The notes under the pieces are model-generated. The model was not told where the DNA came from. It ran no database searches and saw nothing but the letters and a program-made list of their open reading frames with translations. A stretch of DNA of 48,021 bases, from sequence record PQ900155.1. The stretch is one strand, 5' to 3'. Both the position numbers and the translations under genes were made by a program. Below are positions 1 through 17,753 of the stretch, in pieces (the first letter of the stretch is position 1; every line of letters begins with the position of its first letter). This DNA is from Escherichia phage vB_Eco_CWW26.

Positions 1-300
1 TACTCGTCAACACCTCATTTTACCCCGAAATACCCGAGCTATCGGGGTGGTGAATTTACATTCACAATCATAGGTTTACGCGCATAACCGAAAACCCCGT
101 ACATTCTTCCCTTCTTCCTTCTTATAAACCTTATAAACTATACATTATGTATTATACTACATTTATACTATATATTATATACTTTCTATTACTACTAATT
201 ACTATTTTATAAGGGTATAAGGGTAATAAGTAGTATAGTACTGAAAGGTAAAGAGTTTTTGATACCCCGATGAAGTACCCCGAACGACTTTCAACGGGGT
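1..300. repeat. Copy A of a 300-bp perfect direct repeat (copy B = 14844..15143; first 77 bp recur at 47945..48021)
   Basis: Base-by-base comparison shows 1..300 identical to 14844..15143. The first mismatch is at 301/15144 (a/g) and similarity is lost after 306/15149. The region is intergenic, and its AT-rich core yields only the spurious antisense ORF 152..367. Confidence 0.95.
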
Positions 301-303
301 ATG

Positions 304-332
304 TGGCAATGACGGTACAGTCATGGTAAAAT
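304..332 (+). promoter_or_regulatory. sigma70-like promoter TGGCAA-N17-TAAAAT at the right edge of repeat copy A, facing the terminase operon
   Basis: -35 tggcaa at 304..309, a 17-nt spacer, and -10 taaaat at 327..332. It lies 34 nt upstream of the small terminase ATG. A promoter occupies the equivalent position after copy B. Confidence 0.45.
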
Positions 333-365
333 CGTGGCATTAGAGACAATGACGTGGGGACCATC

Positions 366-824
366 ATGGCAAGGGCTAAACTTAACGAACATGGTGTGAC
401 AGAGCAGCAAGAGAAGTTTGCTCAGGCATTTGTGGAAACGGGTAACGCATCCGAGTCATATCGCCGCTCGTATAACACTTCCCGCATGGCCGTAAACACC
501 ATCGCTAAACGTGCATCTGAAATGCTGGATAACGGGGCAGTTGCGGGGAGAATTGCCTCACTTCGTCAAGTTCATTCAAAGCGCCACAACGTGACAGTTG
601 ATTCACTCGTTGCGGAACTGGAAGAAATTAAAAACGTTGCGCTGTCCGCCGAGACGCCGCAATCATCCGCAGCTGTGGCAGCAGTGCTCGGTAAAGCGAA
701 ACTGATGGGACTGGATAAGCAACTGGTTCAGTTGTCCGGCGGTCTGGATAATGTGAATACAAATATCAACATTACCGCCGAAGATGTGAAAGTATTTAAA
801 AAGGCGTTTAACGATGAATTTTAA
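366..824 (+). CDS. terS: Terminase small subunit (P27/Terminase_2-like)
   Basis: This is track ORF 354..824, with ATG 366 (MARAKLNEHG...) preferred as the start. The N-terminal LxEQQEKFAQAFVETGNASESYRRSY pattern is typical of small terminases. It lies immediately upstream of, and overlaps, the large terminase gene. Confidence 0.7.
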   Translation: MARAKLNEHGVTEQQEKFAQAFVETGNASESYRRSYNTSRMAVNTIAKRASEMLDNGAVAGRIASLRQVHSKRHNVTVDSLVAELEEIKNVALSAETPQSSAAVAAVLGKAKLMGLDKQLVQLSGGLDNVNTNINITAEDVKVFKKAFNDEF

Positions 825-2262
825 TTCCCCAAAAGAATTAAAATTACTGCGCCTCGCACTTGAGGAAGATTTTACTTTATTTGCTCGTTTCTTCTTTAAA
901 GTTTTAAAAGGGACTAAATTTGTATTTAGTGACCACCATCATGTAATTTGTGATGCGTTGATGGATGTATTTTACGGTCGCACCACTCATTTAATAATTA
1001 ACATGCCGCCCCGTTATTCGAAAACCGAACTGGCTGTTAAATTATTTTCCGCATGGTGCTACGTTAAGAATCCCAAGTGTGAATTTATTCACCTGTCGTA
1101 TGCTGATATTCTCGCGCTGGATAACTCCGAATCAATCAAATCAGTTTTGAAGTCTGAAGAGTTTCAAAAACTGTGGCCTCATGTGACCATCAAGGCGAAT
1201 AAGGATTCGAAGAAGGCGTGGGGCACTGACCAGGGTGGTGTATTCTATGCGACGGCTGCGGGTGGCCCTATCACTGGTTTTGGTGCTGGCAAACTGGACG
1301 ACTTCGAGAACGGTAATGGGTTTGGTGGTGCAATCATCATCGATGACCCGTTAAAACCAGATGACGCGTATTCTGACCCAAAACGTAACGGTGTTAACCG
1401 TCGCTGGGATGAAACCATCAAATCACGTTTTAACTCCACAAAGACGCCCTGCATTGTCATCATGCAGCGACTTCACGAGGAGGACTTTTGCGGCACCCTG
1501 TTGAAAGACGAGGAGTATAATTTCCGTCATCTGGTGCTTCCTGCCATTGTGGACGAGGGTTTACCGACGGAGCGTGCGTTGTGGCCCCAGAAACACTCTC
1601 TGGAAGCCCTCAAAGCGATGCAGAAGAAAAACTCGTACATGTTCTCCGGTCAGATGCAGCAACGTCCCTCACCGCTCGGGGGCGGCATTCTGAAGGGGTC
1701 ATGGTTCGGACGTTACACCGTTGTGCCAAAGCTGAAATACAGAGCGGTGTTTATCGATACGGCGCAGAAAGCCAAAGAGCATAACGACTATCAGGTCGCC
1801 GAACTGTGGGGACTGGGTGAGGATGGGTATCTGTATCTCCTCGACGTCATGCGTGACAAGTTCGAAGCGTATGAGCTTGAGGTAAAAATTCCCGACTTCT
1901 GGAACAAGCACCGCAATGACAAAAACGGTCGTTTGCGTTACATGGCTGTCGAAGATAAATCATCCGGCACAGAACTTATCCAGAAGATTCGCCGCAAAAT
2001 TAAACCCGTGATACCCGTGCGGGAGATACCACGTGGACCGGCGGCAAATAAATTAACCCGCGTGATGGATGTACAGGGTTACATTGAGTCAGGATATGTT
2101 AAGATACCCGAAGATGCCCCATGGGTTCATGACTTCGTTACGGAGTGTGAAGCGTTCACTGCCGATGATACACACGCTCACGATGACCAGATTGACCCAA
2201 TGTGTGATGCAATTAGTCAAATGCTCCACAATGGCAAAGCAACCGTTTCGGAGATTTTATAA
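814..2262 (+). CDS. terL: Terminase large subunit
   Basis: 482 aa. Walker A-like MPPRYSKTE and Walker B-like AIIIDDP are present, with a C-terminal acidic nuclease region (AHDDQIDP). It sits between the small terminase and portal genes. Confidence 0.9.
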   Translation: MNFNSPKELKLLRLALEEDFTLFARFFFKVLKGTKFVFSDHHHVICDALMDVFYGRTTHLIINMPPRYSKTELAVKLFSAWCYVKNPKCEFIHLSYADILALDNSESIKSVLKSEEFQKLWPHVTIKANKDSKKAWGTDQGGVFYATAAGGPITGFGAGKLDDFENGNGFGGAIIIDDPLKPDDAYSDPKRNGVNRRWDETIKSRFNSTKTPCIVIMQRLHEEDFCGTLLKDEEYNFRHLVLPAIVDEGLPTERALWPQKHSLEALKAMQKKNSYMFSGQMQQRPSPLGGGILKGSWFGRYTVVPKLKYRAVFIDTAQKAKEHNDYQVAELWGLGEDGYLYLLDVMRDKFEAYELEVKIPDFWNKHRNDKNGRLRYMAVEDKSSGTELIQKIRRKIKPVIPVREIPRGPAANKLTRVMDVQGYIESGYVKIPEDAPWVHDFVTECEAFTADDTHAHDDQIDPMCDAISQMLHNGKATVSEIL

Positions 2263-2264
2263 AC

Positions 2265-3674
2265 ATGGCTAAGGCTGCTAAAACAAACCTTCATCTCATG
2301 CCAGCTACAACAACCGACGGGCTGGTAAACGTCGTATCTGGTCTCGGAACGTGGAAAGCAAAACGCTCTCACAACGCGTTCCAGTATGCCGCGCTGTCCA
2401 ACTGGCAACAACTTGACGCAGCTTACCAGACTAACTGGCTGGCTCGTCAGATTGTGGAAATACCTGCCGAAGACATGTGTCGTGAGTGGCGCACTATCAA
2501 GTGCAAGGAAGCTGATGACATCCGTATCGAGGAGGACCGACTGATGATACCTGCCGTTGTACAGGAGGCTGTCACATGGGCGCGTCTGTACGGTGGTGGT
2601 GGTATTCTCATGCTGACCGGTCAGGACCTGTCAAAGCCGCTCGACGTGCGCCGTATTCGTAAAGGTGATTTGAAGCGTTGTATCGTGTTTGACCGTCATG
2701 ATATGTCACCTCTCACCATGAACACCTGGGACATTCTGGCACCTAATTACATGATGCCGGAGTATTACACCATTACTGGTGGTGGACAACAAATCCACTG
2801 GACCCATTTTGCGCGTTTCAATGGTAAGCGTTTGCCGCGTCGCCAGATGGTCCAGACTCAGGGATGGGGTGACAGTGAGTTACGCGTGTGCCTCGATGAC
2901 ATCATGGACATGGTTGCGTCGAAGGATGGCATCGCGGAACTGATGCAGGAAGCAAACGTTGATGTGGTCAAGCGTGAAGGGTTGTCCGATGAGTTAGCCA
3001 GTGACCAGGATGACGCGATTGTGTCGCGTTACACTCTGTTCAGTCAGATGAAGTCACTGGTGCAAATGGCCCTGCTGGACGGTGACGAGTCATACGAACG
3101 TAAGACGCTCGACCTGGGCGGCGTTGCACCGGTGCTTGAGACGTTCATGACGTGGATTAGTGGTGCAGCTGACATTCCTGTCACGCGCCTGTTCGGTACT
3201 TCAGCCAAAGGTTTAAACGCCACGGGTGAAGGGGACATGAACAACTATAACAACTCCATCCGTTCTAAACAGTTGACACAAGTTGACCCGGGGTTGCGCC
3301 AGCTTGATGAGGTGCTGGTACGTAGCGCACTGGGTTACTGGCCTGACGACTTCAACTATGTGTGGAATCCACTCGCACAGCCCAATGAGTTACAGATTGC
3401 ACAGGCCGCTAAAACACGCGCTGATAAGGACATGTTGTATCTCGCAGAAGGTGTTATCACCGTGTCACAGGTGCAGCGCAATCTGGAAGCCGCCGAAGAG
3501 TATCAGTTTGAAGACGGTCAGATTGATGAGCAGTCAGAGACTGAGAAAGAAATGTCCACTGTGCAACGCCCTGAGCCTGACGAGCAGACCACGGACGCAT
3601 TCTGGATACGTTACAATGGGTATGTGGCTGACGGACTGTCGCACGATGAGATAATGGCAAAACTGGCCCAGTAA
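2265..3674 (+). CDS. Portal protein (DUF1073/HI1409-like)
   Basis: 469 aa, directly after terL. Size and position are canonical for a portal, and the C-terminus is acidic. Confidence 0.8.
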   Translation: MAKAAKTNLHLMPATTTDGLVNVVSGLGTWKAKRSHNAFQYAALSNWQQLDAAYQTNWLARQIVEIPAEDMCREWRTIKCKEADDIRIEEDRLMIPAVVQEAVTWARLYGGGGILMLTGQDLSKPLDVRRIRKGDLKRCIVFDRHDMSPLTMNTWDILAPNYMMPEYYTITGGGQQIHWTHFARFNGKRLPRRQMVQTQGWGDSELRVCLDDIMDMVASKDGIAELMQEANVDVVKREGLSDELASDQDDAIVSRYTLFSQMKSLVQMALLDGDESYERKTLDLGGVAPVLETFMTWISGAADIPVTRLFGTSAKGLNATGEGDMNNYNNSIRSKQLTQVDPGLRQLDEVLVRSALGYWPDDFNYVWNPLAQPNELQIAQAAKTRADKDMLYLAEGVITVSQVQRNLEAAEEYQFEDGQIDEQSETEKEMSTVQRPEPDEQTTDAFWIRYNGYVADGLSHDEIMAKLAQ

Positions 3675-3688
3675 CGGGCCAGTTTGGT

Positions 3689-3811
3689 TTATTTCTGCTT
3701 CGTAAAGCCACCACAACCACACTTCGGACACATCGTGTAACTCACGCCTTTCTTTTCAACCCGGTCAAGATGGTGATGCTCATGCTTGCATGCTACGCAG
3801 ATGATAATCAT
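3689..3811 (-). CDS. Small zinc-ribbon protein (40 aa)
   Basis: Read by hand because it is below the track cutoff: MIIICVACKHEHHHLDRVEKKGVSYTMCPKCGCGGFTKQK. It has CxxC...CxxC pairs, and its ATG overlaps the upstream stop (TAATG at 3811). Confidence 0.45.
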   Translation of the reverse strand: MIIICVACKHEHHHLDRVEKKGVSYTMCPKCGCGGFTKQK

Positions 3812-4419
3812 TAATCCTCCAGCTTCACGCCGGGAATTTTACCGGCTGCGATGGCGTCGTAGATATGTTTAGCAATGTGCTTGATTTGCTCATTATTGTT
3901 GCTAATTAACTGACTAGCTTTTCCTATCTCGGAAATAGTCTCATCACGCTTGCGCTCTGCTTCGGTGCGGAGTGGGCGGAATCCGCAAACATTACCAACA
4001 AAAAATGGCTGACTTCCGTCAGATGGTTTAAGGCATGCACCATCGCCATCATAAACAAGGACAGTTACTGGAAGCCAATCATGGTCGCCGCTTGCTAGCC
4101 ACTCACACTCGACACCAACCGGCGGAAGACCTTCTCCGTTCCATGCTGGCTTTTGAGATTCGGCTAGTGCTGCTTTGTATTGCCAATAGGTCACTATCGA
4201 CTCCTTGTGGTCGTAAGATAAAGGCATGACCCATTCACCACACCAGAAATACATAAGGCTATTCCCTGTGTGATGTTTCCATGATAATCCATCATAGTGG
4301 GGATCATTCGTGTCCCATACACACAGGGAACCGTCATTATCTTGAGTAATTGACAGCGCACCCTCCGGCCAACCGCCACGCTTTGGTAATTCCTGACACA
4401 ATAGTTCAAGTAATGTCAT
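3811..4419 (-). CDS. Hypothetical protein (202 aa)
   Basis: Long ORF, translationally coupled to the 4416..4610 gene. No motif recognised. Confidence 0.6.
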   Translation of the reverse strand: MTLLELLCQELPKRGGWPEGALSITQDNDGSLCVWDTNDPHYDGLSWKHHTGNSLMYFWCGEWVMPLSYDHKESIVTYWQYKAALAESQKPAWNGEGLPPVGVECEWLASGDHDWLPVTVLVYDGDGACLKPSDGSQPFFVGNVCGFRPLRTEAERKRDETISEIGKASQLISNNNEQIKHIAKHIYDAIAAGKIPGVKLED

Positions 4420-4610
4420 TTTGTCTCTCCTGTTGCTTTAAGATAGTGTCGTGCTTTGTCAGTGAGTTGAAAGTTGCCCATCCCGAAGCGAGTTGGTTCT
4501 ATGTAACCTTTGTCCAATAAATCTTCCACTGTCTGAGGTATCACCCGCCAGAAACGTGTATTTTTGAAACTTTTAAGCATGCTAATTTCACGCTTCGTTA
4601 AACTGTCCAT
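4416..4610 (-). CDS. Small protein, possible winged-helix DNA binder (64 aa)
   Basis: GGAGGAG RBS lies upstream of ATG 4610. It is the first gene downstream of the leftward promoter at 4646..4674. Confidence 0.5.
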   Translation of the reverse strand: MDSLTKREISMLKSFKNTRFWRVIPQTVEDLLDKGYIEPTRFGMGNFQLTDKARHYLKATGETK

Positions 4611-4645
4611 CTCTACTCCTCCCGCTGAATTGTGATAACATGTAC

Positions 4646-4674
4646 ACTCTACTCCATACTGACGAGGCCGTCAA
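4646..4674 (-). promoter_or_regulatory. Leftward promoter TTGACG-N17-TAGAGT embedded in palindrome CTGACG-AGGC-CGTCAA (4659..4674)
   Basis: The minus strand reads ttgacg gcctcgtcagtatggag tagagt. This is one member of the recurrent palindrome family. Confidence 0.6.
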
Positions 4675-4676
4675 GC

Positions 4677-5462
4677 ATGTCACGACAAACAGAGCTAAAT
4701 TATTATCGCCAGCTGAAACAGGTTGCACAGCTTGTTCGTGAGGATGTGGACGCCAACATCGTCCCGCTGGTGAAACAGCTTGCGCCGGAGTACACGGCTG
4801 ACGGCTGGAGTGACACTATCACCTCGGCGATTAACCAGTTGCTCACACGGTGGCTTGGTGCGTTTGCTCGTCGTCAGGCTGAGACTATTGCGTCACAGTT
4901 TGTACAGACTGCGGCAAAGGATAACGCCCGCTCATTCGCTATCAATCTGTACGGCGGCGATACACAGCTACAGGAATATCTCAGCGCCGCATCGTATCAG
5001 AACGCTAAACTCATTCAGTCCATTCCGGCTCAGTATCTGGAGCAGGTGCAGAACATCGTCATGACCAACATGCGTAACGGTATGCGCCCCAGTTACATCG
5101 AGGAAGCACTTGTTAAACAATTTGGTATCACGGAGCGTCGTGCCAAACTTATCGCCCGGGACCAGACCAGTAAAATACAGGGCGATATGAACCGCATTCG
5201 CCAGACGAACAGCGGTATTGAGTATTTCAAATGGGTGACGTCACAGGATGAGCGGGTACGTCATAGCCACGTGGAGGTCGCCAAACGCGATGTGGGATTC
5301 GGTGAAGGTGTATTCCGCTGGGATGATTTGCCGGTTGTCGATGGTGTACCAACATTTCCGGGTCAGCCAATAAATTGCCGTTGTGTGGCGAGGCCAGTCA
5401 CAGCGGCACAGGTGGAGCGGAATAAAAGGGCCGGTAAAACCGACCCAAGTGTTAAGCGATGA
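4677..5462 (+). CDS. Head morphogenesis protein (Mu F / SPP1 gp7 family)
   Basis: This is track ORF 4632..5462, with ATG 4677 (MSRQTELNYY) preferred because it has a GAGG 9 nt upstream. The WVTSQDERVRHSH motif is typical of the family. Confidence 0.8.
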   Translation: MSRQTELNYYRQLKQVAQLVREDVDANIVPLVKQLAPEYTADGWSDTITSAINQLLTRWLGAFARRQAETIASQFVQTAAKDNARSFAINLYGGDTQLQEYLSAASYQNAKLIQSIPAQYLEQVQNIVMTNMRNGMRPSYIEEALVKQFGITERRAKLIARDQTSKIQGDMNRIRQTNSGIEYFKWVTSQDERVRHSHVEVAKRDVGFGEGVFRWDDLPVVDGVPTFPGQPINCRCVARPVTAAQVERNKRAGKTDPSVKR

Positions 5463-5742
5463 TACCGTCGACCACTTTGTACCATTGCTCTTTAATATTA
5501 TCCAGTCGTGCTATATGTCTGGTAATTTGAGTTTCAAGATGAGCATGTGCACCCAGTAAACTACCAAATAACACCCATTTATCTTTGTGCATGTGAATGT
5601 GGACACCTGCGTTTTTACCAGTTCTGACGAAATCATATGAATTTTTATAGCTTCTATTCACATATCCTACAATGATTTCCGCTTGTGATATCTCATCGAT
5701 ATTTATTGGTAACGCAAATCTTATCTCTATCTCTTGCGTCAT
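5452..5742 (-). CDS. Hypothetical protein (96 aa)
   Basis: ORF whose start is coupled to the upstream gene (ATG at 5742 abuts the stop of 5742..5852). Confidence 0.5.
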   Translation of the reverse strand: MTQEIEIRFALPINIDEISQAEIIVGYVNRSYKNSYDFVRTGKNAGVHIHMHKDKWVLFGSLLGAHAHLETQITRHIARLDNIKEQWYKVVDGIIA

Positions 5743-5852
5743 TATTTACCCTTCCACGTTTCAATTAAACTTTCAATACCCAGGAACAGTAAGTAGCCAA
5801 ATACCAACGTTCCGAACCAGTGGTCAGCAATGAAGTTGAGTACGTCAATCAT
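5742..5852 (-). CDS. Small membrane protein (36 aa)
   Basis: This is track ORF 5742..5945 trimmed to ATG 5852, which forms an ATGA overlap with the stop of 5849..6037. It has one hydrophobic helix, WFGTLVFGYLLFLGI. Confidence 0.4.
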   Translation of the reverse strand: MIDVLNFIADHWFGTLVFGYLLFLGIESLIETWKGK

Positions 5853-6037
5853 TTCCCACGTCCTCTGAACACTCGATTCAACACTTCCCACAGTCCGGAA
5901 ATTACAGCAACCGGACCAAATGCGACAATTGTCCATGCCTGCCACTTATATTCCAGTTCCAGAGGCACCGTGGCGATTGTTACTATAATTACCCACCCTG
6001 CAAGCAGGATAATCAGTACACCTTTGGTAATATCCAT
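5849..6037 (-). CDS. Small membrane protein (62 aa, 2 predicted TM)
   Basis: Hydrophobic segments VLIILLAGWVIIVTIATV and VAFGPVAVISGLW. Gene boundaries are coupled. Confidence 0.5.
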   Translation of the reverse strand: MDITKGVLIILLAGWVIIVTIATVPLELEYKWQAWTIVAFGPVAVISGLWEVLNRVFRGRGK

Positions 6038-6234
6038 TAGCCCAACACCTTATTAACAAGTTGGTCCATCGCGGTCCATCGCTTAGATGCCGAACCATCC
6101 TCTTTAGTCGCGGTGAATGTCACAATATCCTCGAGGAAGTTCATTTTAAAGTTTGTCACAGTGATAACACCGTCTGCATCAATAATCCGGTCATTGTTGC
6201 GGAGCATTACCGCTTTAATTGGTTTATAGTTCAT
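6037..6234 (-). CDS. Hypothetical protein (65 aa)
   Basis: ORF with an ATGA overlap to the upstream 49-aa ORF. Confidence 0.45.
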   Translation of the reverse strand: MNYKPIKAVMLRNNDRIIDADGVITVTNFKMNFLEDIVTFTATKEDGSASKRWTAMDQLVNKVLG

Positions 6235-6380
6235 TTTCCATACGCCTCACGTAATGCAGCATTAGCGAGCGCCCAATCATCATGCTTGCGCGCAAGCTGC
6301 TGTGCGGTCTGTAACAGTTCTTTATCAATGACCCGCGCCTCTGATACGGGGCGGTCGTAGCCAGGAAGTAATGTGTTCAT
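6231..6380 (-). CDS. Hypothetical small protein (49 aa)
   Basis: Read by hand: MNTLLPGYDRPVSEARVIDKELLQTAQQLARKHDDWALANAALREAYGK. It has a GAGAGGG RBS and is the first gene after the leftward promoter 6412..6441. Confidence 0.4.
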   Translation of the reverse strand: MNTLLPGYDRPVSEARVIDKELLQTAQQLARKHDDWALANAALREAYGK

Positions 6381-6411
6381 CTCTCAAACCCTCTCTGTTG
6401 TTGATGAATTA

Positions 6412-6441
6412 AGTATACGTCATCCCTGACGAACTCGTCAA
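6412..6441 (-). promoter_or_regulatory. Leftward promoter TTGACG-N18-TATACT in palindrome CTGACG-AACT-CGTCAA (6426..6441)
   Basis: The minus strand reads ttgacg agttcgtcagggatgacg tatact. It lies between two leftward gene blocks. Confidence 0.6.
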
Positions 6442-6447
6442 CTTAAA

Positions 6448-6633
6448 TCACTCCTGCGGCGGCTCGGGTAATGGTTGCCAGTGTGTGGGAGTAAATAAAG
6501 CGCCATAAACTCGCCAGTTACCGCTTAATCCTTCGCTATAGAAACCAGTCTTCATTCCGCAATACTTCTTTGTCACCAGTACATCAACGCCTTCTTCTGG
6601 TAATTTATCACTACACTTAATCCAGTCTGCCAT
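6448..6633 (-). CDS. DUF551-like phage protein (61 aa)
   Basis: MADWIKCSDKLPEEGVDVLV...THWQPLPEPP is the characteristic DUF551 pattern. Confidence 0.6.
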   Translation of the reverse strand: MADWIKCSDKLPEEGVDVLVTKKYCGMKTGFYSEGLSGNWRVYGALFTPTHWQPLPEPPQE

Positions 6634-6814
6634 ACAATGTCCCCACTCGTTTCAAATCGCGCTGTGCGTGACAGCTGTAATTACCATCGTCCCATTTGAC
6701 CCAGTATTGCGGCGGGTCATTTGCGACAACATTTTTAACTGTGCCGGTAACGACACCATCGGGGAATAACTTCACAAGTGTCCCGGTTGGGTAGCGTGGG
6801 ATGGTGCTGGTCAT
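6617..6814 (-). CDS. Hypothetical protein (65 aa)
   Basis: ORF in the coupled leftward cassette. Confidence 0.45.
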   Translation of the reverse strand: MTSTIPRYPTGTLVKLFPDGVVTGTVKNVVANDPPQYWVKWDDGNYSCHAQRDLKRVGTLYGRLD

Positions 6815-7104
6815 TCCAGTTCCTCATCTTTTTGATTAATGTACACTGGTTCACCAAACCATACGGGTGTGACATATCCCTTGATTTCATCAGCAATGCG
6901 ACTGGCGCACGATAGCGCCCCTGATTGTGAATGTATGCGACCGTTGGCATATTCAGTTTGATAGGCGTGAGGCTGCTCACCCTCATACAACGGTTTCAGT
7001 TTATACCCAAACATGACAGCGTTGTTATGCGCCACACTGCCCGCGCGGACCAGATATGTCGTACCGCGATTGGTTGTCACTTCATATGCGTATGGTGTGT
7101 TCAT
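6811..7104 (-). CDS. Hypothetical protein (97 aa)
   Basis: ORF with coupled overlaps on both sides. Confidence 0.5.
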   Translation of the reverse strand: MNTPYAYEVTTNRGTTYLVRAGSVAHNNAVMFGYKLKPLYEGEQPHAYQTEYANGRIHSQSGALSCASRIADEIKGYVTPVWFGEPVYINQKDEELE

Positions 7105-7658
7105 TTGTCACCCTCCGACAGTTCATTAATTAGACGCTCAAGATACCAGCGGGCCTTTTTCACATCTTCCAGGCCGTTCTTCTCTTCATAGCGCCACAGG
7201 TATTTAACAACGTTTGCCACACATACTGCCTCGATACCGGTCTTACCCACCGTGGCAGCGGTGATAGCGTCGATACACTCGATACCGCCTTGTGTGTAGT
7301 GTGACGGGTGGTTGACCATGTCGACATCAATGAGTGGAGTTTGAATGCAACCGAATTGTACAGTACCATCTGGGTGATGAATTGAACGCGGACGATTATC
7401 ATTGGTTGCTACAGGTTCGCGTTGGGCGATGATTTCTATGTTATAGGTAGCGTTAACGTCTCCTTCACCAAGCGTATTACAATCATCAAGACTTGACTCA
7501 CTGGGCCACCAAATTCTGTCCCCCACACTTTGCAAACCGTTACGGTTTTCCTCATATCCGATGTCGCCAGTTCCCAACTCTCTTATCACCTGCTTACACC
7601 AATCCGGCGCACATTCGAAGTCTTTCTCGTCACCTTTAATGTAGTTCCACGTGGTCAT
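7101..7658 (-). CDS. DUF3310 / SaV-like protein (185 aa)
   Basis: This is track ORF 7101..7757 trimmed to ATG 7658, which has a GAGGAG RBS and lies downstream of the promoter. The C-terminal NHPSHY...IECIDAI...KYLWRYEEKNGLEDVKKARWYLERLI matches the DUF3310 signature. Confidence 0.65.
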   Translation of the reverse strand: MTTWNYIKGDEKDFECAPDWCKQVIRELGTGDIGYEENRNGLQSVGDRIWWPSESSLDDCNTLGEGDVNATYNIEIIAQREPVATNDNRPRSIHHPDGTVQFGCIQTPLIDVDMVNHPSHYTQGGIECIDAITAATVGKTGIEAVCVANVVKYLWRYEEKNGLEDVKKARWYLERLINELSEGDK

Positions 7659-7704
7659 GTTGTATCTCCTCTGAAATATATGTATTATGTGTTTAACGAT
7701 TATC

Positions 7705-7733
7705 ACTATGGCATACTCTGACGGACTCGTCAA
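7705..7733 (-). promoter_or_regulatory. Leftward promoter TTGACG-N17-CATAGT in palindrome CTGACG-GACT-CGTCAA (7718..7733)
   Basis: The minus strand reads ttgacg agtccgtcagagtatgc catagt. Confidence 0.6.
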
Positions 7734-7734
7734 C

Positions 7735-8829
7735 ATGCAAATCACCGTAACGCACAATGACCGTAAAAGTTTTGCACTGAATTCCCAACGTGTTTACACG
7801 GATGAGGGATTTCTGCGTGTGCCGGGTAAAGCCGCTCGTACTGGTATTCAGGAATATCTCGCTTCGGAACTGGGACTGAAAGGTCGCGCACCGAACGACA
7901 TTATCCGTGTGTACCGTCCCGCCGAAGAAGTGTTTAATGATGAATCACTTCAGAGCTATCTCGGTGCAGATGTCACGAATAACCATCCTCCTACGCTTGT
8001 CAATGCTTCCACATACCGTAATACTTCCGTTGGTGTTGTAACGAGTGTCGGTCGTCAGGACGGCGATTTCGTCATTGTGGATATGGTTATCAAGGATAAA
8101 GACGCGATTAAGGCTGTCGAAACCGGTAAGTGTGAGTTGTCAGCGGGTTACACGGCGGTGTATGATGATACACCGGGGACAACGCCGGAAGGTGAACCAT
8201 ACGACTTCCGACAGACTCAGATTAAAATTAACCACGTTGCAATTGTTGACCGTGCTCGTGCGGGTGCAATGGCGCGTATCTTCGATAATATGGAGAAAAA
8301 ACCCATGTATCAAATCACCACTGACACCGGGCTAAAAGTTGATGTGGCGGATGCTGCGGTAGTAGACGCGTTCAAACGCTTGGAACAGCGTGTCAGTGAC
8401 GCCGAAGCCGCCAAAGAAACCGTACAGGCTCAACTCGACGCAGCAATGGAACAGGTTGCCGACCTGACCACTAAATGCAGCGACGAAGCCCTGAAAGCAC
8501 GCGTGGAAGCAATCGCACGTGTTACCTCCTCAGCGCGTAAAGTTGCTGGCGATGAATTCACCTGTGACAGCATGGACCCGGTTACAATCAAACGTGCCGC
8601 TCTCGCTGTTAAACGTCCGTCTGTTGACTGGGCTGAAAAATCTGCCGCCTATGTTGAAGCCGCTTTCGACATGGCTGTGGAAGAACCGGTGAAACCTGTG
8701 GTAGACTCACAGCTTGAGCAACTGGCTAAAGATGGTGCTAAAGACATCAAACAGCCGGTAGCCGACGCAAAACCTGTACTGTCCCGCGCACAAGAAGCAC
8801 TGCTGCGTCAGACTGGTAAACTTAAATAA
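7735..8829 (+). CDS. Scaffold/prohead-core-like protein (DUF2213-like)
   Basis: This is track ORF 7687..8829, and the start is uncertain (ATG at 7687, 7708 or 7735, none with a strong SD). It has ARTGIQEY near the N-terminus and an Ala/Glu-rich coiled C-terminal half. It sits between the morphogenesis and capsid genes. Confidence 0.5.
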   Translation: MQITVTHNDRKSFALNSQRVYTDEGFLRVPGKAARTGIQEYLASELGLKGRAPNDIIRVYRPAEEVFNDESLQSYLGADVTNNHPPTLVNASTYRNTSVGVVTSVGRQDGDFVIVDMVIKDKDAIKAVETGKCELSAGYTAVYDDTPGTTPEGEPYDFRQTQIKINHVAIVDRARAGAMARIFDNMEKKPMYQITTDTGLKVDVADAAVVDAFKRLEQRVSDAEAAKETVQAQLDAAMEQVADLTTKCSDEALKARVEAIARVTSSARKVAGDEFTCDSMDPVTIKRAALAVKRPSVDWAEKSAAYVEAAFDMAVEEPVKPVVDSQLEQLAKDGAKDIKQPVADAKPVLSRAQEALLRQTGKLK

Positions 8830-8840
8830 GGGTGACATAG

Positions 8841-9329
8841 ATGGCTATTACTGCAACCAGCTACGGTCTGAATCACGACGCAGCCTTTACCGGGATGGTC
8901 GCCGACGGACAAGTAGCGAATATCGTTTCCAAAATCAACGATGACACCGCAACCGTCGCATATGGTAAAGGTGTTGTACGTAGCGGCGAGAAAGGCTTTA
9001 AGGCTGCAACTGCCAGCTCCACAGCTACTGACTTCGTGGGCGTACTGGTTCGTGAACTGAACCGCTCATACGCTGACGGTGCAACTTTTGGTGCTCCGGT
9101 TGATCGTCCGGCATCTGTGCTCACTGCTGGCGTAATCTGGGTAACCGTGGCAGAGGCTGTTGCTGTTGGTGACGCTGCATTCCTGCGTGTTGGTGCGACT
9201 CAGACCGGCGATTTCGCTAAGACAGAGGGTTCCGCAGCAACTCTGTCGGTTGCCATTCCTGGCGCTAAATTCCTCACTGCCGCGACAGCCGGTGGTCTGG
9301 CTAAACTGTCTCTGGTTGTTGGGGGTTAA
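8841..9329 (+). CDS. Head structural/decoration-like protein (DUF2190-like)
   Basis: 162 aa, Ala/Gly/Val-rich, immediately upstream of the major capsid gene. Confidence 0.4.
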   Translation: MAITATSYGLNHDAAFTGMVADGQVANIVSKINDDTATVAYGKGVVRSGEKGFKAATASSTATDFVGVLVRELNRSYADGATFGAPVDRPASVLTAGVIWVTVAEAVAVGDAAFLRVGATQTGDFAKTEGSAATLSVAIPGAKFLTAATAGGLAKLSLVVGG

Positions 9330-9331
9330 TA

Positions 9332-10366
9332 ATGGATAAGTTAAACAGCGTTGTACTTGACGCACAGACTATCGCGGGTAACCCGTGGGTTAAACAGTAT
9401 CTGGATGGTCAGAATGCTATCAACGTTCCGACTGAATTCCGTGATGCTGACGGCGGTATCGCATTCTACATCTCTCAGCTGGCACAGATTGAGCAGACCA
9501 TCTATGCAACTCCGTATGCGGATATCACTTATCTGCAGGACATCCCGGTTGTATCCGGCATTCCTGAGTTTGCGAACCACTGGAACTACCGGTCATATGA
9601 TGGCGTCACGGTCGGGAAATTCATCGGCGCAAACGCTATGGACCTGCCTCGCGTTGCCCAGTCTGCAAAACTCCACACTGTACCGCTGAACTACGGCGGC
9701 ATCGAGTGTCACTACAGCATCGACGAGCTGCGCACCACTGCGTCTCAGAACATGCCGATTGACACCATGCAGCAGCAGCTGGCATATCGTGGCTATGAAG
9801 AACACAGTCAGAAAGTGGCGTACTTCGGCGACTCACAGCTGGGAATGTCCGGCCTCCTGAATCATCCCAACGTGACAGTTACATCAGCCACTGTCGACTA
9901 TAAAACCGCCACCGGTCAGCAGCTGTTCGACATGATCAACGACCCGTTGTTCAACATCATCAAACTGTCCAAAAACTTCCACCTGCCGAATACCATCCGC
10001 GTATTCCCGGACCTGTGGAAACGCATGAACAGCACGCTGATGACCGGGTATACTGACCGCACCGTTATGGAGCATTTCAAAATCAATAACTCCTTCACCC
10101 TGATGACCGGGCAGGAAATTGATATTCAGGTTCGTTACCAGCTGACCGCTGCGGAACTGGCTGCGGGCGGCGTGTCCAACAGTTCGAAAGACCGCGTGCT
10201 CATTTACGAGAAGAACGACCGCAACCTGGGTGTTGCCAAGCCGATTCCGTTCCGCATGCTGGCGCCGCAGAATAAAGGTCTGGCCGTAACTGTACCGGCA
10301 GAGTATAAGATTTCAGGCACTGAAATTCGCTACCCTCTGAGTGCAATCTACCTCGACATGCTGTAA
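9332..10366 (+). CDS. Major capsid protein
   Basis: 344 aa at the canonical position. It is followed by a strong intrinsic terminator, typical of the most highly expressed late gene. Confidence 0.7.
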   Translation: MDKLNSVVLDAQTIAGNPWVKQYLDGQNAINVPTEFRDADGGIAFYISQLAQIEQTIYATPYADITYLQDIPVVSGIPEFANHWNYRSYDGVTVGKFIGANAMDLPRVAQSAKLHTVPLNYGGIECHYSIDELRTTASQNMPIDTMQQQLAYRGYEEHSQKVAYFGDSQLGMSGLLNHPNVTVTSATVDYKTATGQQLFDMINDPLFNIIKLSKNFHLPNTIRVFPDLWKRMNSTLMTGYTDRTVMEHFKINNSFTLMTGQEIDIQVRYQLTAAELAAGGVSNSSKDRVLIYEKNDRNLGVAKPIPFRMLAPQNKGLAVTVPAEYKISGTEIRYPLSAIYLDML

Positions 10367-10388
10367 TACCTACCCTCAGCGACATCCC

Positions 10389-10415
10389 AAGCCCTCTTCG
10401 GAGGGCTTTTCTTTT
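10389..10415 (+). terminator. Rho-independent terminator after the capsid gene
   Basis: aagccctc-ttcg-gagggctt hairpin followed by ttcttttg. Confidence 0.75.
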
Positions 10416-10462
10416 GCCTCCTCTTTGGTTATAGTTAACACCATCTCAAGAGGAGCAATTCC

Positions 10463-12043
10463 ATGTTTATAGAAAAAGCAAAAGAAATACATAAAGGAAA
10501 ATATGACTATTCCAAAGTGGAATATGTAAACAACAAAACACCTGTGACGATAGTTTGCCCGGTGCATGGCGATTTCGTTCAACTACCACAGGGACACCTG
10601 AAATGCGAAATAGCGTGCCCAAAATGCAGAATCGACGACGTTTATGACCGAATGATACAACAGGCGCGAGCGATTCATGGTGACAAGTACTCATACGTCC
10701 GGGAATCGTTCATTTCCGTAGTCAAGAAAATGTCCATAGTGTGTCCGGTACACGGGGTGTATTACATGACACTGAATAACCACGTTCACGGGGGTGCGGA
10801 GTGTAAACCCTGCGCACTGGCAAAGCGTGGTGAGTTACACCGAAAGACACTTGATAGTTTTGTAGAAGACGCGAAAAAAGTTCATGGTGACAGGTACGAT
10901 TATTCCAAAGTTGTTTACGAGGGTAACAAAAAGAAAATAACCATCACTTGTGCAAAACATGGTGACTTTAAACAGGAACCATCTTCACATCTTTCAGGAA
11001 GAGGTTGTCCAAAATGCGGCCTTGAGTCAAGAGTAAGCAAAAGCATGAGTACTCTTGAAAGATTCATTCGCAAAAGCAGAGTCATACATGGTGATAAATA
11101 CGATTATTCCAAAGCGGTGTATAAAGGTAGTGACCAAAAATTAACCATAATTTGTCCGGTACATGGTGAATTTTCCCAATACGCAAACAACCACTCTACT
11201 CTTGGCCATCAATGCCCGACGTGTTCTAAAGCTGGTGTGTCCCGGGGTGAATTTGAAGTCTTCAACTTCGTCCGTTCCATCTGTCCCGATGCGGTACAAT
11301 CTGACCGTACAGTCATTGGACCGCTGGAACTTGATGTTGTAGTGCCGTCGCGCAATCTGGCAATTGAATTTAACGGCCTGTACTGGCACGATGAACGCAC
11401 GAAAAACAAGAAGTATCACATCACCAAGCGTCACCGCGTGGAAGCCGCAGGATACCGTCTGATAAGTATCCGTGAGGATGTCTGGAATGAGCGCCGCGAA
11501 CAGGTGGAAAGTATCATTCGCAACGCACTCGGCGTGACATCCGACAAAGTGTTTGCCCGCAAATGTAATATCGTGGAAGTTTCGACGTCTGAAGCGAAGG
11601 TATTTATGGAGAAACACCACGTGCAGGGTTTCCGGGGTGCGACCGTACATTATGGTCTGCAACACGATGATACATTAGTCGCCGTAATCAGTCTGACAAA
11701 CTGGCAGAAAAAGAATGAGTGGGAACTGGTACGATATGCAACCGCGTGTAATGTTCCGGGTGGACTGTCCCGCCTGTGGAAACATGCTACCACGGTTAAC
11801 AACATTGTCCGTGCCTATTCATACGTTGACCGGGATTTGTTCAGTGGTTCCGGTTATATTAATGCCGGTTTCACACTTTCAACCACGACAGTGGGGTTCA
11901 GGATTGTAAATGGTTGCACAACCGAATCGCGTGAGAAGTGGAACCGCGCACCAGATGAAATGACACAGACGCAATGGTACGAATCAGAAGGTGTATCACG
12001 CATCTACGATTCTGGACAGGACAAGCTGTTATGGGTAGAATGA
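10463..12043 (+). mobile_element. Free-standing homing-endonuclease-like gene: four tandem Zn-ribbon repeats, a PD-(D/E)XK/Vsr-like core and a Hef-like C-terminal domain (526 aa)
   Basis: Four repeats of the form HG(D)KYDYSKV-Y-x6-K-x-I-CP-HG-F-x10-CPxC span aa 3-56, 64-118, 131-185 and 198-254 (nt 10469..11224). These are followed by LELDVVVPSRNLAIEFNGLYWHDE (nuclease core) and ARKCNIVEV..FMEKHHVQG. The gene has its own RBS after the capsid terminator and interrupts the head gene order. Confidence 0.6.
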
Positions 12044-12075
12044 CAACGGGTAAGTATTGCAACTAAAGGTGATTT

Positions 12076-12393
12076 ATGGTTACTGTAAAAAATATTTCCG
12101 CTCGTCCGTTCATGATGCCGGGCGAAGAAGACGTGATGGAACGTATGCTGGCACCGGGTGATTCGAAAGAATTCGAAGTTACTCCGGCAATTTACAGCCT
12201 GGTCAGCGCATATCAGGAAGCAGGTGAACTGGTTGTCATTTCGGGCGAACTGAAGAACCCTGAATCGGACGTCGAGGATGTGACCATCGACAAACTTCGT
12301 GCGGAAGCCGAAGAACTGGGTATCAAAGTTGATACACGCTGGAAGAAGTCACGACTTCAGCAAGAGATTGAGGCAGCAAAAGCCGCCTCTTAA
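12076..12393 (+). CDS. Hypothetical virion-module protein with C-terminal HeH/SAP-like motif (105 aa)
   Basis: ORF with an RBS. The C-terminus KLRAEAEELGIKVDTRWKKSRLQQEIE resembles HeH motifs. Confidence 0.45.
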   Translation: MVTVKNISARPFMMPGEEDVMERMLAPGDSKEFEVTPAIYSLVSAYQEAGELVVISGELKNPESDVEDVTIDKLRAEAEELGIKVDTRWKKSRLQQEIEAAKAAS

Positions 12394-12411
12394 TTAACAT
12401 AGGGGTGTGAA

Positions 12412-12992
12412 ATGGCTTTCCCGTCAAATGTAATTCCACCCTCACAACAGCCCCTGTCTGAACTCCTGGATATCTGGGAGAGACAGGGGTATGTTTTTGA
12501 GGCTTCCACTGTTACCAGCGTTGCTGCGGGTGCATCGAATAAAACTATCTTCGTCGCCGGGTCACGTCCGGTAATCCTCTTTGACCGTCAGTTGTCATAC
12601 GATGGTGTCGGGGTGAACGCCGCAATCTTTCGCGCGCCCACGTACACCGGTGGCACACTTGTTACTGAAATCAACAATGCCAATGACATCATTACACAGA
12701 CCAATACGGCCAATATCTACAGTGGTGCGACGGTGACAGCAGACGGTATCCAGACTCGTTCGGTTCGTTATATTTTCGGCACCACAAGTAACCAGGGCGC
12801 GGGTGACGCATTACGTGCAATCCAAAGTCCACAATTGCTTTTACCCGGCGCAGTGCTTAATCTGGTACTGACGAATCGTGACACCAACGCGGCGCAGAAC
12901 ATCGCATCACATTTGCGCTGGGCCGAACCACCAACAATTCCGGGACTGGTCATTCAGAATGGTCAGTTTGTAAGCTATAACGGGGTCAATCT

Positions 12993-12996
<4 letters not shown>
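12412..12996 (+). CDS. Hypothetical structural protein (194 aa)
   Basis: ORF with a GGGG RBS, in the head-completion region. Confidence 0.5.
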
Positions 12997-13770
<774 letters not shown>

Positions 13771-13789
13771 GCCCCTCACGGGGCTTTGT
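13771..13789 (+). terminator. Terminator-like hairpin gcccc-tcac-ggggc + ttt
   Basis: GC stem directly after the stop codon with a short T run. It lies between convergent gene ends. Confidence 0.45.
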
Positions 13790-13865
13790 AAGACATGAAT
13801 GCTTTCATGAATTCCGCTGCACCTTTGTCCCATTCGTTACAATGGTTAACCATCCGTATCGTGAG

Positions 13866-14414
13866 TTAACTTCCGGTACTCCCAAAACCACCCTGACGGT
13901 TAGTTTTCTGTTGGGGAGGTTCATTGATTTCATTAAACGTCACTTGTTCGACTGGAATTAGCATCCCCTGTGCGATCCGGTCACCGTGATTAACCCAGAA
14001 CACACCTTCATGATGGTTAACATCCTGCGTCAACTTAACCATTAACTCACCAGTGTAGTCACTGTCAATGACGCCGGTACAATTTGACAGACGGACATCG
14101 CTGTTAAATCCGTGACCACTGCGTGAGTAAATCATCAAAGCATGTCCAACTGGTATATCAAATTTAAGCCCTGTAGGAATGATTACAGGCTCACCGTTGT
14201 GAATTAGCACTGGTTTATCGAGTGCAGCATAAATATCGAAGCACGCGCTTCCTGACGTTGCATACGTTGGGATACGTGCACCAGGACGTGACAGGTAAAC
14301 ATTCATTTCGCTCATTTCTTCAACTCTCCAGCCATATTGTGCGCGGTTAAGCGCGATAAATTTATCTTTCGTTGTAAATAAAACTGTTCCGGACTTATGC
14401 ATTACTACCCACAT
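13866..14414 (-). CDS. dut: dUTPase (trimeric dUTP diphosphatase)
   Basis: Motifs PTYATSGSACFDIYA, YSRSGHG, GVIDSDYTGEL and C-terminal RQGGFGSTG. An N-terminal extension of about 35 aa is possible, and the start could be 14414 or 14402. Confidence 0.85.
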   Translation of the reverse strand: MWVVMHKSGTVLFTTKDKFIALNRAQYGWRVEEMSEMNVYLSRPGARIPTYATSGSACFDIYAALDKPVLIHNGEPVIIPTGLKFDIPVGHALMIYSRSGHGFNSDVRLSNCTGVIDSDYTGELMVKLTQDVNHHEGVFWVNHGDRIAQGMLIPVEQVTFNEINEPPQQKTNRQGGFGSTGS

Positions 14415-14793
14415 ATTTAATCACCATGTATCCTGGTCTGGCGGAAAGTGAGACCTTGTGTCCATATATCCACGCGGTTTTATATACGTATGTCAACTGT
14501 GCGGTGCGCAATTTAATGTCAGAATATGTAGCTTTCGTTCTCCATTCCCATGTAAATTTATCGCCTGGTTTTGCTCTTTCAAGGGCGTCAAGAAGGATGA
14601 TGCGCTCATACGACCTTACTCCACGTGATACGCGTCTCCGGGTTTTGGGCTTCCCTCGTGCCAGACTTCGACCATCTGGTTTTCCACTTTTTGTGATTCG
14701 TATCAGTCTCTGTGATGGCTGTGCGACATCTCGAGGGACACTCTCTTCTGGAACAGAATTTATTTTTTTTAAAATATAAGATGCAAATGACAC
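14395..14793 (-). CDS. Hypothetical basic protein (132 aa, GTG start)
   Basis: This is track ORF 14395..14856, but its upstream ATG lies inside the promoter -35. GTG 14793 is preceded by AGAGGAG with 7-nt spacing. Confidence 0.5.
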   Translation of the reverse strand: MSFASYILKKINSVPEESVPRDVAQPSQRLIRITKSGKPDGRSLARGKPKTRRRVSRGVRSYERIILLDALERAKPGDKFTWEWRTKATYSDIKLRTAQLTYVYKTAWIYGHKVSLSARPGYMVIKYVGSNA

Positions 14794-14824
14794 TGTGTTA
14801 CTCCTCTCTGTAATTTGTAAAACG

Positions 14825-14853
14825 AGTATATCAATGATTGACGTACTCGTCAA
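14825..14853 (-). promoter_or_regulatory. Leftward promoter TTGACG-N17-TATACT in perfect palindrome TTGACG-TACT-CGTCAA (14838..14853)
   Basis: The minus strand reads ttgacg agtacgtcaatcattga tatact. The right half-site is the first 10 bp of repeat copy B. Confidence 0.65.
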
Positions 14854-15143
14854 CACCTCATTTTACCCCGAAATACCCGAGCTATCGGGGTGGTGAATTT
14901 ACATTCACAATCATAGGTTTACGCGCATAACCGAAAACCCCGTACATTCTTCCCTTCTTCCTTCTTATAAACCTTATAAACTATACATTATGTATTATAC
15001 TACATTTATACTATATATTATATACTTTCTATTACTACTAATTACTATTTTATAAGGGTATAAGGGTAATAAGTAGTATAGTACTGAAAGGTAAAGAGTT
15101 TTTGATACCCCGATGAAGTACCCCGAACGACTTTCAACGGGGT
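14844..15143. repeat. Copy B of the 300-bp perfect direct repeat
   Basis: Identical to 1..300. It is intergenic, lying between the divergent dUTPase cassette (-) and the tail operon (+). Confidence 0.95.
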
Positions 15144-15146
15144 GTG

Positions 15147-15175
15147 TGGATACTGACGCAATGCTGTGTGATAAT
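15147..15175 (+). promoter_or_regulatory. sigma70-like promoter TGGATA-N17-GATAAT (with TGn extended -10) at the right edge of repeat copy B
   Basis: -35 tggata at 15147..15152 and -10 gataat at 15170..15175, preceded by tgt. It lies 24 nt upstream of ATG 15199. Confidence 0.5.
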
Positions 15176-15198
15176 GTCTTGACAAACGAGGGCACACT

Positions 15199-15702: not shown

Positions 15703-16052
15703 GTCTGTCAATGCGTGGTCATATTGACAACGTGTTTAAATCTGTACCGGCGACACATGTGGGTAAATCTGGCTCATACGTGGACGGTATCTGGACACCC
15801 GTGACATCCGGACCGGTTGCGTTCACGGTGAACATTCAACCACTGAGCGACAAGGAAATTGATTTTCTGCGTCAGGGCGGTCAGCGCATCGTTGACCCGC
15901 GTAAGATATACGTTAACAATGGTGACCTCGACTCAATCGCGCTCGATGGTGAATGGGTATTCCTGGGTCAGCGCTGGAAAGTCATTCGCACTGACAATCG
16001 CCCGTGGCGTAAATACTGTAAGGTAATTGTGGACCGCTATGACCAACAATGA
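15699..16052 (+). CDS. Hypothetical tail/neck protein (117 aa)
   Basis: Coupled ORF (ATGA overlap). Confidence 0.45.
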   Translation: MSLSMRGHIDNVFKSVPATHVGKSGSYVDGIWTPVTSGPVAFTVNIQPLSDKEIDFLRQGGQRIVDPRKIYVNNGDLDSIALDGEWVFLGQRWKVIRTDNRPWRKYCKVIVDRYDQQ

Positions 16053-16563: not shown

Positions 16564-16603
16564 TGGTCAACGTGTGCACACTGTAACTTACGAGGACTCG
16601 TAA

Positions 16604-17740: not shown

Positions 17741-17753
17741 TGGAGAATGACCG

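Follow-up and report, generated by a model that had tools for sequence, protein, structure and literature searches.

A duplicated 300-bp intergenic element set between back-to-back predicted promoters in Escherichia phage vB_Eco_CWW26 and other phages of the genus Jedunavirus

Results

The repeat and its genetic surroundings

The sequence analysed here, referred to as the window, is the complete 48,021-nucleotide (nt) record PQ900155.1 of Escherichia phage vB_Eco_CWW26, a phage of the genus Jedunavirus, and the subject of the analysis is a 300-bp element that it contains twice in direct orientation, at 1-300 (copy A) and at 14844-15143 (copy B). By self-alignment, the two copies are 100% identical and gap-free, and a perfect 300-mer cannot have arisen by chance. 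Extending the match to 1-306 vs. 14844-15149 gives an identity of 99.67%: nt 301 differs between the copies (A vs. G), and 302-306 (TGTGG) is again common to both. The left flanks differ (...GAGAATT/TACTCG vs. ...TTGACG/TACTCG, the slash marking the edge of the element), and the right junctions read GGGGT/ATGTGG vs. GGGGT/GTGTGG. A preliminary description of this DNA had reported a perfect 300-bp repeat located in two divergent intergenic regions; the base-for-base match, its limits and the divergent intergenic setting agree with it.

Both copies are intergenic and their flanking genes are divergent. Copy A has gp88 (47321-47899, minus strand) on its left and terS (366-824, plus strand) on its right, copy B has gp30 (minus strand) on its left and a neck/tail-completion gene (15199-15702, plus strand) on its right. 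The copies are both internal, are separated by 14,843 bp and bracket exactly the head module, from terS to the head-completion gene. On both sides, identity ends at promoter elements, the promoter-like sites being defined here as sigma70 consensus matches obtained in a consensus scan. The features at the two loci are as follows.

1..300, plus strand: copy A, filling the space between the leftward gp88 promoter and the rightward terS promoter, both predicted
14844..15143, plus strand: copy B, between the predicted leftward gp30 promoter and the predicted rightward neck/tail promoter, 100% identical to copy A
14853 to 14825, minus strand: predicted leftward promoter of copy B, TTGACG-17-TATACT with TG, 10 of 12 matches, for the gp30-dUTPase cassette
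47954 to 47925, minus strand: predicted leftward promoter of copy A, TTGACG-18-TATAGT, ahead of gp88 and gp87
303..332, plus strand: predicted rightward promoter P_A (TGGCAA-N17-TAAAAT at 304-332), extended -10 TGg, position-specific, kept genus-wide
15147..15175, plus strand: predicted rightward promoter P_B, TGGATA-N17-GATAAT, extended -10 TGt, position-specific, kept genus-wide
47945..48021, plus strand: terminal redundancy, a 77-bp copy of nt 1-77 left as an overlap by circular assembly, which does not count as a third copy of the element

All four promoter-like sites previously proposed around the copies were recovered by the scan. The -35 of the leftward promoter of copy A sits in the redundant end copy of element nt 10..5. 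Concerning the rightward promoters, the -35 hexamers TGGCAA (P_A) and TGGATA (P_B) agree with the consensus at three to four of six positions, and both are combined with a TGn extended -10. A poor -35 with a TGn extended -10 is the usual form of activator-assisted promoters, and the pairing of a poor -35 with a usable -10 that characterises activator-dependent late promoters is found here by consensus match. The unit downstream of copy A comprises terS, terL and the portal gene, and that downstream of copy B the neck and tail genes. The statement that the repeat precedes "both virion-operon promoters" had to be narrowed, as the element does stand ahead of the terS and neck units but is missing from the rightward virion units starting at 4677, 7687, 18898 and 23749.

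Internal organisation of the element

The following parts were distinguished within the element, in copy A coordinates unless copy B is named.

5..10, minus strand: leftward -35, TTGACG (CGTCAA on the plus strand), the same in copy B at 14848-14853
21..48, no strand assigned: left motif cluster, with TACCCCGAAA, TACCCGAG and inverted TCGGGGTG, yielding ACCCCGA-N13-TCGGGGT; copy B 14864-14891
93..101, plus strand: mid-left motif, a conserved AACCCCGTA in the middle of the left module
100..245, no strand assigned: core, pyrimidine-rich then AT-rich, with 70-90% AT in 30-nt bins vs. 51% for the genome
208..226, minus strand: GGGTA doublet, TATAAGGGTATAAGGGTAA, with two GGGTA (reverse complement TACCC), near-invariant, distant lineages included
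250..301, no strand assigned: promoter-proximal cluster, with AAAGAGTTTTTGATACCCCG, TACCCCG and inverted CGGGGTA; copy B 15093-15144

Each end of the element thus carries TACCCC(G) motifs, two direct and one inverted; a further TACCCC-type copy is found at nt 94, and the motifs of the GGGTA doublet span 211-225. A well-conserved stretch at nt 50-110 ends in AACCCCGTAC. At the right end, ACCCCG-N12-CGGGGT occupies 277-300, the cluster stops 3 bp short of the rightward -35 position, and in nearly every copy GGGGT(A/G)TGTGG runs across the boundary to the -35 region. If transcription is presumed to start 7 nt after the -10, the centre of 277-300 lies at about -51, i.e. a dyad is present some 40-60 bp upstream of the start. 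At the opposite end, the -35 of copy B (14848-14853) forms the right half of a palindrome, TTGACG-N4-CGTCAA, at 14838-14853.

These motifs are strongly enriched: ACCCCG is present six times per copy vs. about 0.13 expected, seven of the 23 non-redundant TACCCC matches of the genome lie inside the 600 bp of the two copies, and the inverted pair ACCCCG-N(6-20)-CGGGGT has no occurrence elsewhere in the genome. As for the core, its plus strand is nearly G-free up to about nt 207 and nearly C-free beyond, and this composition, but not the sequence, is kept across four unrelated allelic types. The element also has the layout of an iteron-type origin, with a motif array beside an AT-rich region of the unwinding type, and its z-score when folded as single-stranded DNA is -3.5.

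A known structured RNA was considered and rejected. Rfam 15 gave no match in the whole window at the gathering score and only chance-level ones for nt 1-420 scanned at E up to 1 (E >= 0.17), the tRNA/tmRNA scan found none, and RNA folding of both modules on both strands gave unremarkable z-scores of -0.2 to -1.8. Several mini-open reading frames (ORFs) are annotated in or across the element (gp01, 47951..13; gp02, 39-104; gp03, 202-324; gp31, 14882-14947; gp32, 14995-15195). They are probably spurious, and a coding role was discarded since the indels between allelic types are not multiples of three.

Distribution in the genus and beyond

The matching GenBank phage records are 70 in number (65 Klebsiella, two ZCEC13, two Pectobacterium PEAT2 and one Acinetobacter LAPP1). 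All of them hold at least two matching places, 157 in total, with the element at the same two sites and identically oriented. All genomes and contigs examined have TGGCAATGACGG...TAAAAT (terS-type) after one copy and TGGATACTGGCG...GATAAT (neck-type) after the other. No match to the element was found in 5,426 complete E. coli genomes or in 72,556 plasmids. A miniature mobile element, one of the alternatives raised at the outset, was rejected on these grounds: there are neither terminal inverted repeats nor a target-site duplication, the copies always occupy the same two loci, and no host replicon matches.

In the distant relatives L023 and L027-L029, the head-completion gene is directly followed by the neck gene; an intergenic gap, the leftward cassette and the element are all lacking. 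Copy B would therefore have arrived with the insertion that splits the head-tail gene string. In three more distant lineages (L048/L072, L112/L115 and L114), the same block order is rebuilt from different sequence. The L048/L072 lineage is a distant one (57% amino acid identity for terS of L072, 48% for the neck gene of L048 and 45% for the major capsid protein), and both of its positions are occupied. There, the A/B identity runs through the promoter to just past the -10, so that the duplicated unit would be the control region together with its promoter. In the L112/L115 lineage, an exact 20-mer search for copy B found only copy A.

Evolution of the two copies

Judged by this distribution, the duplication predates the genus. 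The recent duplication suggested previously as a source of the 100% identity is not tenable, as the duplication is genus-wide and also found in more distant lineages; gene conversion and strong constraint, suggested alongside it, are both supported by the comparative pattern.

The two copies were compared in ten genomes with two full-length copies, over 151 variable columns. Within genomes, A and B differ on average at 11 of the 151 columns (0, 0, 0, 0, 5, 12, 15, 17, 27 and 34 differences; in the four cases of 100% A/B identity, the assembler may have merged near-identical copies), vs. between-genome means of 57 for A vs. A, 60 for B vs. B and 59 for A vs. B. When the A-B pairing was shuffled, one of 20,000 permutations was as good as the real pairing. 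The neighbour-joining tree clusters the copies according to genome rather than position, and half of them have as nearest neighbour the partner from their own genome. The copies evolve in concert. Homogenisation presumably proceeds by intragenomic homologous recombination (gene conversion), and recombination proteins are among the products of the phage itself. The flanking promoters show the reverse of what is seen in the element, being conserved by position, which places the boundary between concerted and ordinary evolution at nt 300/301.

The element is also mosaic when genomes are compared. The AT core exists as four unrelated allelic types, all of 133-150 bp and 72-78% AT. In PEAT2 and the metagenomic genomes c051106 and c066185, the left and centre of copy A are replaced, a TACCCCG...GGGTA pair is still there and the proximal 110 bp are kept. 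Only this promoter-proximal 110 bp is retained at both sites by every genome; it stays about 94% identical while terS varies from 64 to 100% in amino acid identity. Mosaic breakpoints were located inside the element at about nt 190 and about nt 20. In copy B of several relatives, 1.4 to 4 copies of a tandem 65-bp promoter-like unit (TAATTTCATTCCGATCAAAAAGTGAAC...TATAAT...) are inserted at nt ~20; these units are absent from the window genome.

L006 15650-15755; L011 13821-14042; L013 12083-12347; L073 12522-12678; L107 168-330: tandem 65-bp units

L107 also shows, at 650-669 (about 3949-3968 of the MEW1 record), a G10 tract in the neck-gene leader/ribosome-binding region, 40 bp downstream of copy B. 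This tract matches the phase-variable intergenic "variant 3958" of phage MMNM/MEW1 (PMC11633184).

Candidate binding proteins

The gene next to copy A was considered as a source of a protein recognising the motifs.

47321..47899, minus strand: gp88, directly left of copy A in every lineage seen, with two zinc-ribbon-like Cys/His motifs

An alignment of the gp88 family (including L112 2501-3016 and L114 268-819) has an invariant C-x-H...C-x2-C and C-x2-C...C-x2-C, with a helix of about 35 residues between them. On these features, gp88 is a candidate for the cognate binding protein. Its AlphaFold model, based on a 24-sequence alignment, has a pLDDT (predicted local distance difference test) of 84, and in Foldseek searches against PDB and BFVD it shared only a zinc ribbon with accessory domains of HNH/EndoVII phage proteins. 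Neither gp88 nor gp30 has a Pfam or PHROGs match, and the candidate binding proteins gave no match to PDB by sequence. Among the neighbouring genes, Pfam and PHROGs pointed to a TetR-type helix-turn-helix protein (gp78) and a weak winged helix-turn-helix in the exonuclease-like gp86. No activator of the Ogr/Delta or Mor/C family was detected by Pfam in the genes scanned, namely the neighbours of the element and several other candidate genes, and no replication initiator was identified by Pfam or PHROGs.

Record start and assembly effects

The identity of 1-77 and 47945-48021, overlooked in the preliminary description, is an overlap of the type left by a circular contig assembled at k = 77, and the unit genome is 47,944 bp. 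The suggestion that the record might start at an assembly-graph node is borne out by this 77-bp terminal overlap at the edge of the repeat. Related contigs likewise end inside the element with overlaps of 55 or 99 bp, and whole assemblies fall into two arcs ending in it, of about 14 kb and about 34 kb. For example, the 14,565-bp "circular" IMG/VR genome IMGVR_UViG_3300030250_000011 (L037) is exactly the stretch between the copies, and in ERZ791607 (ENA) a 34,191-bp and a 14,118-bp contig make up one genome (L079/L090 and L096; NODE-564 and NODE-1747). Public "viral genomes" of about 14 and 34 kb, self-closed via the repeat, almost certainly arose during assembly and do not represent real mini-circles.

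The start of several GenBank records falls inside copy A: nt 137 in KpV52 (L002), KpV79 (L108) and JustaPhage (L109), about nt 140 in cmc20193 (L111) and about nt 107 in Geezett (L110). In KpV52, nt 137 is a site at which copies A and B differ; this start is probably a graph-node boundary, the later records following that orientation. A terminus at the shared nt 137 is accordingly unlikely, as the position coincides with an A/B single-nucleotide polymorphism (SNP) and with reference-guided orientation. A direct terminal repeat or other physical end was rejected: the copies are internal, only the 77-bp overlap joins the ends, and a member of the genus, IME346, has no fixed termini according to its authors (PMC9007800).

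A duplication created by assembly is excluded by comparison with related genomes, both copies being carried by 70 of 70 GenBank records and by many metagenome contigs.

Other observations in the window

The annotated start of gp30 (14853) falls upstream of its own predicted promoter (-35 at 14853-48, -10 at 14830-25). Translation more likely begins with a GTG at 14793, which follows GAGAGGAG, and the product would then have 132 amino acids.

The 16-bp palindrome TTGACG-N4-CGTCAA mentioned for copy B is present, with small variations, in seven promoter regions, namely that of copy B and six others. It may be an operator overlapping the -35 of early-type promoters.

4661-4676, 14838-14853, 18823-18838, 23699-23714, 38664-38680, 38728-38745, 44737-44752: palindrome TTGACG-N4-CGTCAA sites

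About 580 bp (23166-23749) of normal GC content have neither a convincing ORF nor an Rfam match. A strong bidirectional terminator (23166-23195) marks one end of this segment and a promoter region around 23700 the other; the segment may correspond to a leftward non-coding transcript or to a decayed gene.

Internal direct repeats with a 204-bp spacing were found in two genes, the endonuclease-like gp23 (10883-10969 and 11087-11173) and the tail-fibre gene gp53 (29072-29110 and 29276-29314). They are 72-74% identical and are likely to be repeated protein domains.

Discussion

A proposed control region shared by two late units

We tentatively read the element as a duplicated cis-regulatory platform for a sequence-specific DNA-binding factor serving two late operons; the binding of this factor, the activation and its timing are inferred. 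Taken alone, the anatomy would fit a promoter control region, an iteron-type origin or a packaging (pac) region, and it is the comparative pattern that favours the first of these. The proximal module is never lost at either site, its orientation is fixed and it almost always abuts the -35. Copy B occurs only where the late gene string is interrupted, so that the downstream half needs its own promoter. Furthermore, both rightward promoters combine a weak -35 with an extended -10. The idea of a shared upstream region for late transcription, put forward in the preliminary description, is thus the favoured one, given the proximal 110 bp kept at both promoters and a distant-lineage repeat that spans the promoter, with the restriction that it does not extend to all virion units.

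The element would be a complete control region between back-to-back promoters, present twice. In each copy, the leftward end would provide the -35 of a strong sigma70-type promoter for a small, variable cassette of accessory or early type, and the rightward end would stop 3 bp before a late promoter with a weak -35 and an extended -10. The TACCCC(G) arrays may be bound by a sequence-specific factor, for which gp88 or a host factor are candidates, to form a nucleoprotein complex, and the AT-rich core of about 140 bp (72-78%), easily bent or melted, could let the two ends communicate. The proximal pair, at about -40 to -60 from the presumed starts, could recruit or stabilise RNA polymerase at the promoters with a weak -35. 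The packaging/head unit and the tail unit would thereby be given a common input, and the divergent leftward promoters would possibly be switched off. Copy B would exist because, in this lineage, the leftward cassette split the head-tail string, leaving a downstream half in need of its own promoter region.

Several points weigh against this reading. The same element is not found at all late operons, as it is in activator-dependent late systems: the rightward virion units starting at 4677, 7687, 18898 and 23749 are without it, so that it cannot be regarded as a general element of late promoters. A strict activator position is difficult to reconcile with RCIP0054, L013 and L018, whose copy B has a replaced proximal inverted pair situated about 70 bp farther away from the -10. 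The inverted half-sites are separated by a variable distance (6 to 16 nt), and a compensatory variant exists (ACCCTG...CAGGGT); both features are easier to reconcile with a hairpin or with flexible binding than with a rigid dimer. An AT-rich core surrounded by motif arrays is, equally, what textbooks describe for iteron-type origins. Finally, no known late-activator Pfam family was found among the neighbour genes of the element and the several other candidate genes scanned, and the fold search with gp88 (Foldseek, PDB and BFVD) gave no informative match.

Alternative explanations

The alternative that deserves most attention, although we regard it as unlikely, is a pair of replication origins, in which the TACCCC arrays would act as iterons and the AT core as an unwinding element, with the outward promoters supplying negative supercoiling at two initiation sites. 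Phage SPP1, with two origins (oriL and oriR) that share initiator boxes beside AT-rich DNA, offers a precedent for a duplicated origin. The short motifs in both orientations flanking a core of about 140 bp, whose 72-78% AT but not sequence is kept in four allelic types, would suit such a function, as would the small hairpins with compensatory change, the single-stranded DNA fold (z = -3.5) and a phage-encoded replisome that includes an NrS-1-type primase-polymerase/helicase. However, twin origins would not account for the retention of the proximal 110 bp next to both late promoters in all genomes, in a fixed orientation and directly against the -35, and they leave unexplained the promoter inside the repeat of the distant lineage. 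Pfam and PHROGs yielded no initiator, and copy B stands amid virion genes, far from the replication module; GC skew tracks gene orientation and is uninformative on origins. A composite of the two functions, which would make the element a phage cis-element of a type not described before, appears distinctly improbable: a TACCCC array bound by the double zinc-ribbon/coiled-coil gp88 family would be both a replication start and an enhancer of the two main late operons, coupling both processes, or the copies would be paired into a 14.8-kb loop isolating the head module, the identity of the copies then being selected. For a pac region, which we consider highly doubtful, TerS would bind the motif arrays around a central cleavage zone and the second copy would be a second packaging start. 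Copy A does lie directly upstream of terS (Terminase_2 family), its motif clusters around an AT-rich centre resemble SPP1 pacL/pacR and P1 pac, and several GenBank records begin inside it (nt 137, about 140 and about 107). Yet the adjacency to terS holds for copy A only, copy B being 14.8 kb away and kept at the neck gene in every genome. Moreover, terS varies between 64 and 100% in amino acid identity vs. about 94% identity for the proximal module, the nt 137 start coincides with an A/B SNP in KpV52, a reference that later records may just follow, and IME346 has no fixed termini (PMC9007800).

It is more improbable still that the element is a recombination linker, i.e. that identical blocks are kept around the 14.8-kb packaging/head module mainly for its exchange between co-infecting relatives. 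The copies do bracket the terS-to-head-completion module exactly, and the mosaic alleles have their breakpoints within the element, at about nt 190 and nt 20. The same direct repeats would, however, also promote a lethal deletion of the module, and the fine-scale conservation of motifs and block order among lineages of unlike sequence speaks for a sequence-specific role; an exchange of the module is more likely to be a by-product than what was selected. Least credible of all, to a degree that we regard as negligible, is an assembly artefact or a miniature mobile element. An artefact might be suspected from a record that begins at the repeat edge with a 77-bp overlap, from the many contigs that break within the element and from a merging of two near-identical copies, which could exaggerate their perfect identity. 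Against this, both copies are present in independent isolates and metagenomes from several laboratories and platforms, with 0-34 genome-specific A/B differences. A mobile element is contradicted by the lack of terminal inverted repeats, of a target-site duplication and of any match in the 5,426 E. coli genomes and 72,556 plasmids, and by its two fixed loci.

Significance and comparison with known systems

In the literature searched on the genus, no description of the repeat was found, nor any transcript or terminus mapping beyond IME346; one paper states that repeats are absent, having used a tandem-repeat finder only (PMC10276810). The element is the largest conserved non-coding feature of a genus of Klebsiella and Escherichia phages widely used as therapy candidates. 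If the control-region reading is right, it would offer a small and clean system for the coordination of two late operons without a recognisable late activator or sigma factor, and it provides a system for watching the concerted evolution of regulatory DNA in a virus. There are practical consequences as well. Short-read assemblies are broken by the element into two pseudo-circular arcs (about 14 and 34 kb) that are deposited as separate viral genomes; it fixes record starts and attracts spurious ORF calls; and in engineered phages of the genus it is a ready-made substrate through which the head module can be deleted.

The late promoters of P2/186/P4 (Ogr/B/Delta) and Mu (C, Mor) resemble the present ones in having a usable -10, a poor -35, a dyad about 40-60 bp upstream and an element repeated before several late operons. 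They differ in that the sequence shared here is of 300 bp and not of about 20 bp, and that it also holds the -35 of a divergent promoter and an AT-rich core; here, only two rightward units are concerned, the two copies are homogenised by what appears to be gene conversion, and no Ogr/Delta or Mor/C homologue was detected in the genes scanned. The phi29 switch (divergent A2c/A2b and A3, with p4 and p6 sites) is similar in its 200-300 bp or so between early-type and late promoters, its several inverted-repeat sites and the bendable AT-rich DNA between them; in phi29, a single nucleoprotein complex can repress one side and activate the other. However, phi29 has one such region, vs. two copies 14.8 kb apart here, the motifs are unrelated, and a p4- or p6-like protein was not identified in the present phage.

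As for replication and packaging sites, the lambda origin and SPP1 oriL/oriR share with the element short-motif arrays beside an AT-rich unwinding region, in SPP1 as two dispersed copies with shared initiator boxes. Those origins lie in or beside the initiator gene, whereas the element is tied to two late promoters and has arrays on both sides of its core. The pac sites of SPP1 and P1 recall the position of copy A directly upstream of terS and its motif clusters around an AT-rich zone; they differ by the conserved second copy found here at the neck gene and by the absence of defined termini in a member of the genus (PMC9007800). The promoters of the T7 group and the start-associated sequences of cluster K mycobacteriophages are likewise conserved non-coding sequences reused upstream of several units, but they are short (13-35 bp) and numerous, vs. 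a long composite present in exactly two copies that undergo concerted evolution. On the whole, the closest functional counterparts of the element would be the upstream sites of the P2/186/P4 and Mu late promoters, or the phi29 switch. It is not a member of any of these systems: its motifs are unrelated to theirs, no homologous regulator was detected in the genes scanned, and not all late operons carry it. It stands apart in its size, which takes up the whole space between two promoters, in being present exactly twice and in the concerted evolution of its copies.

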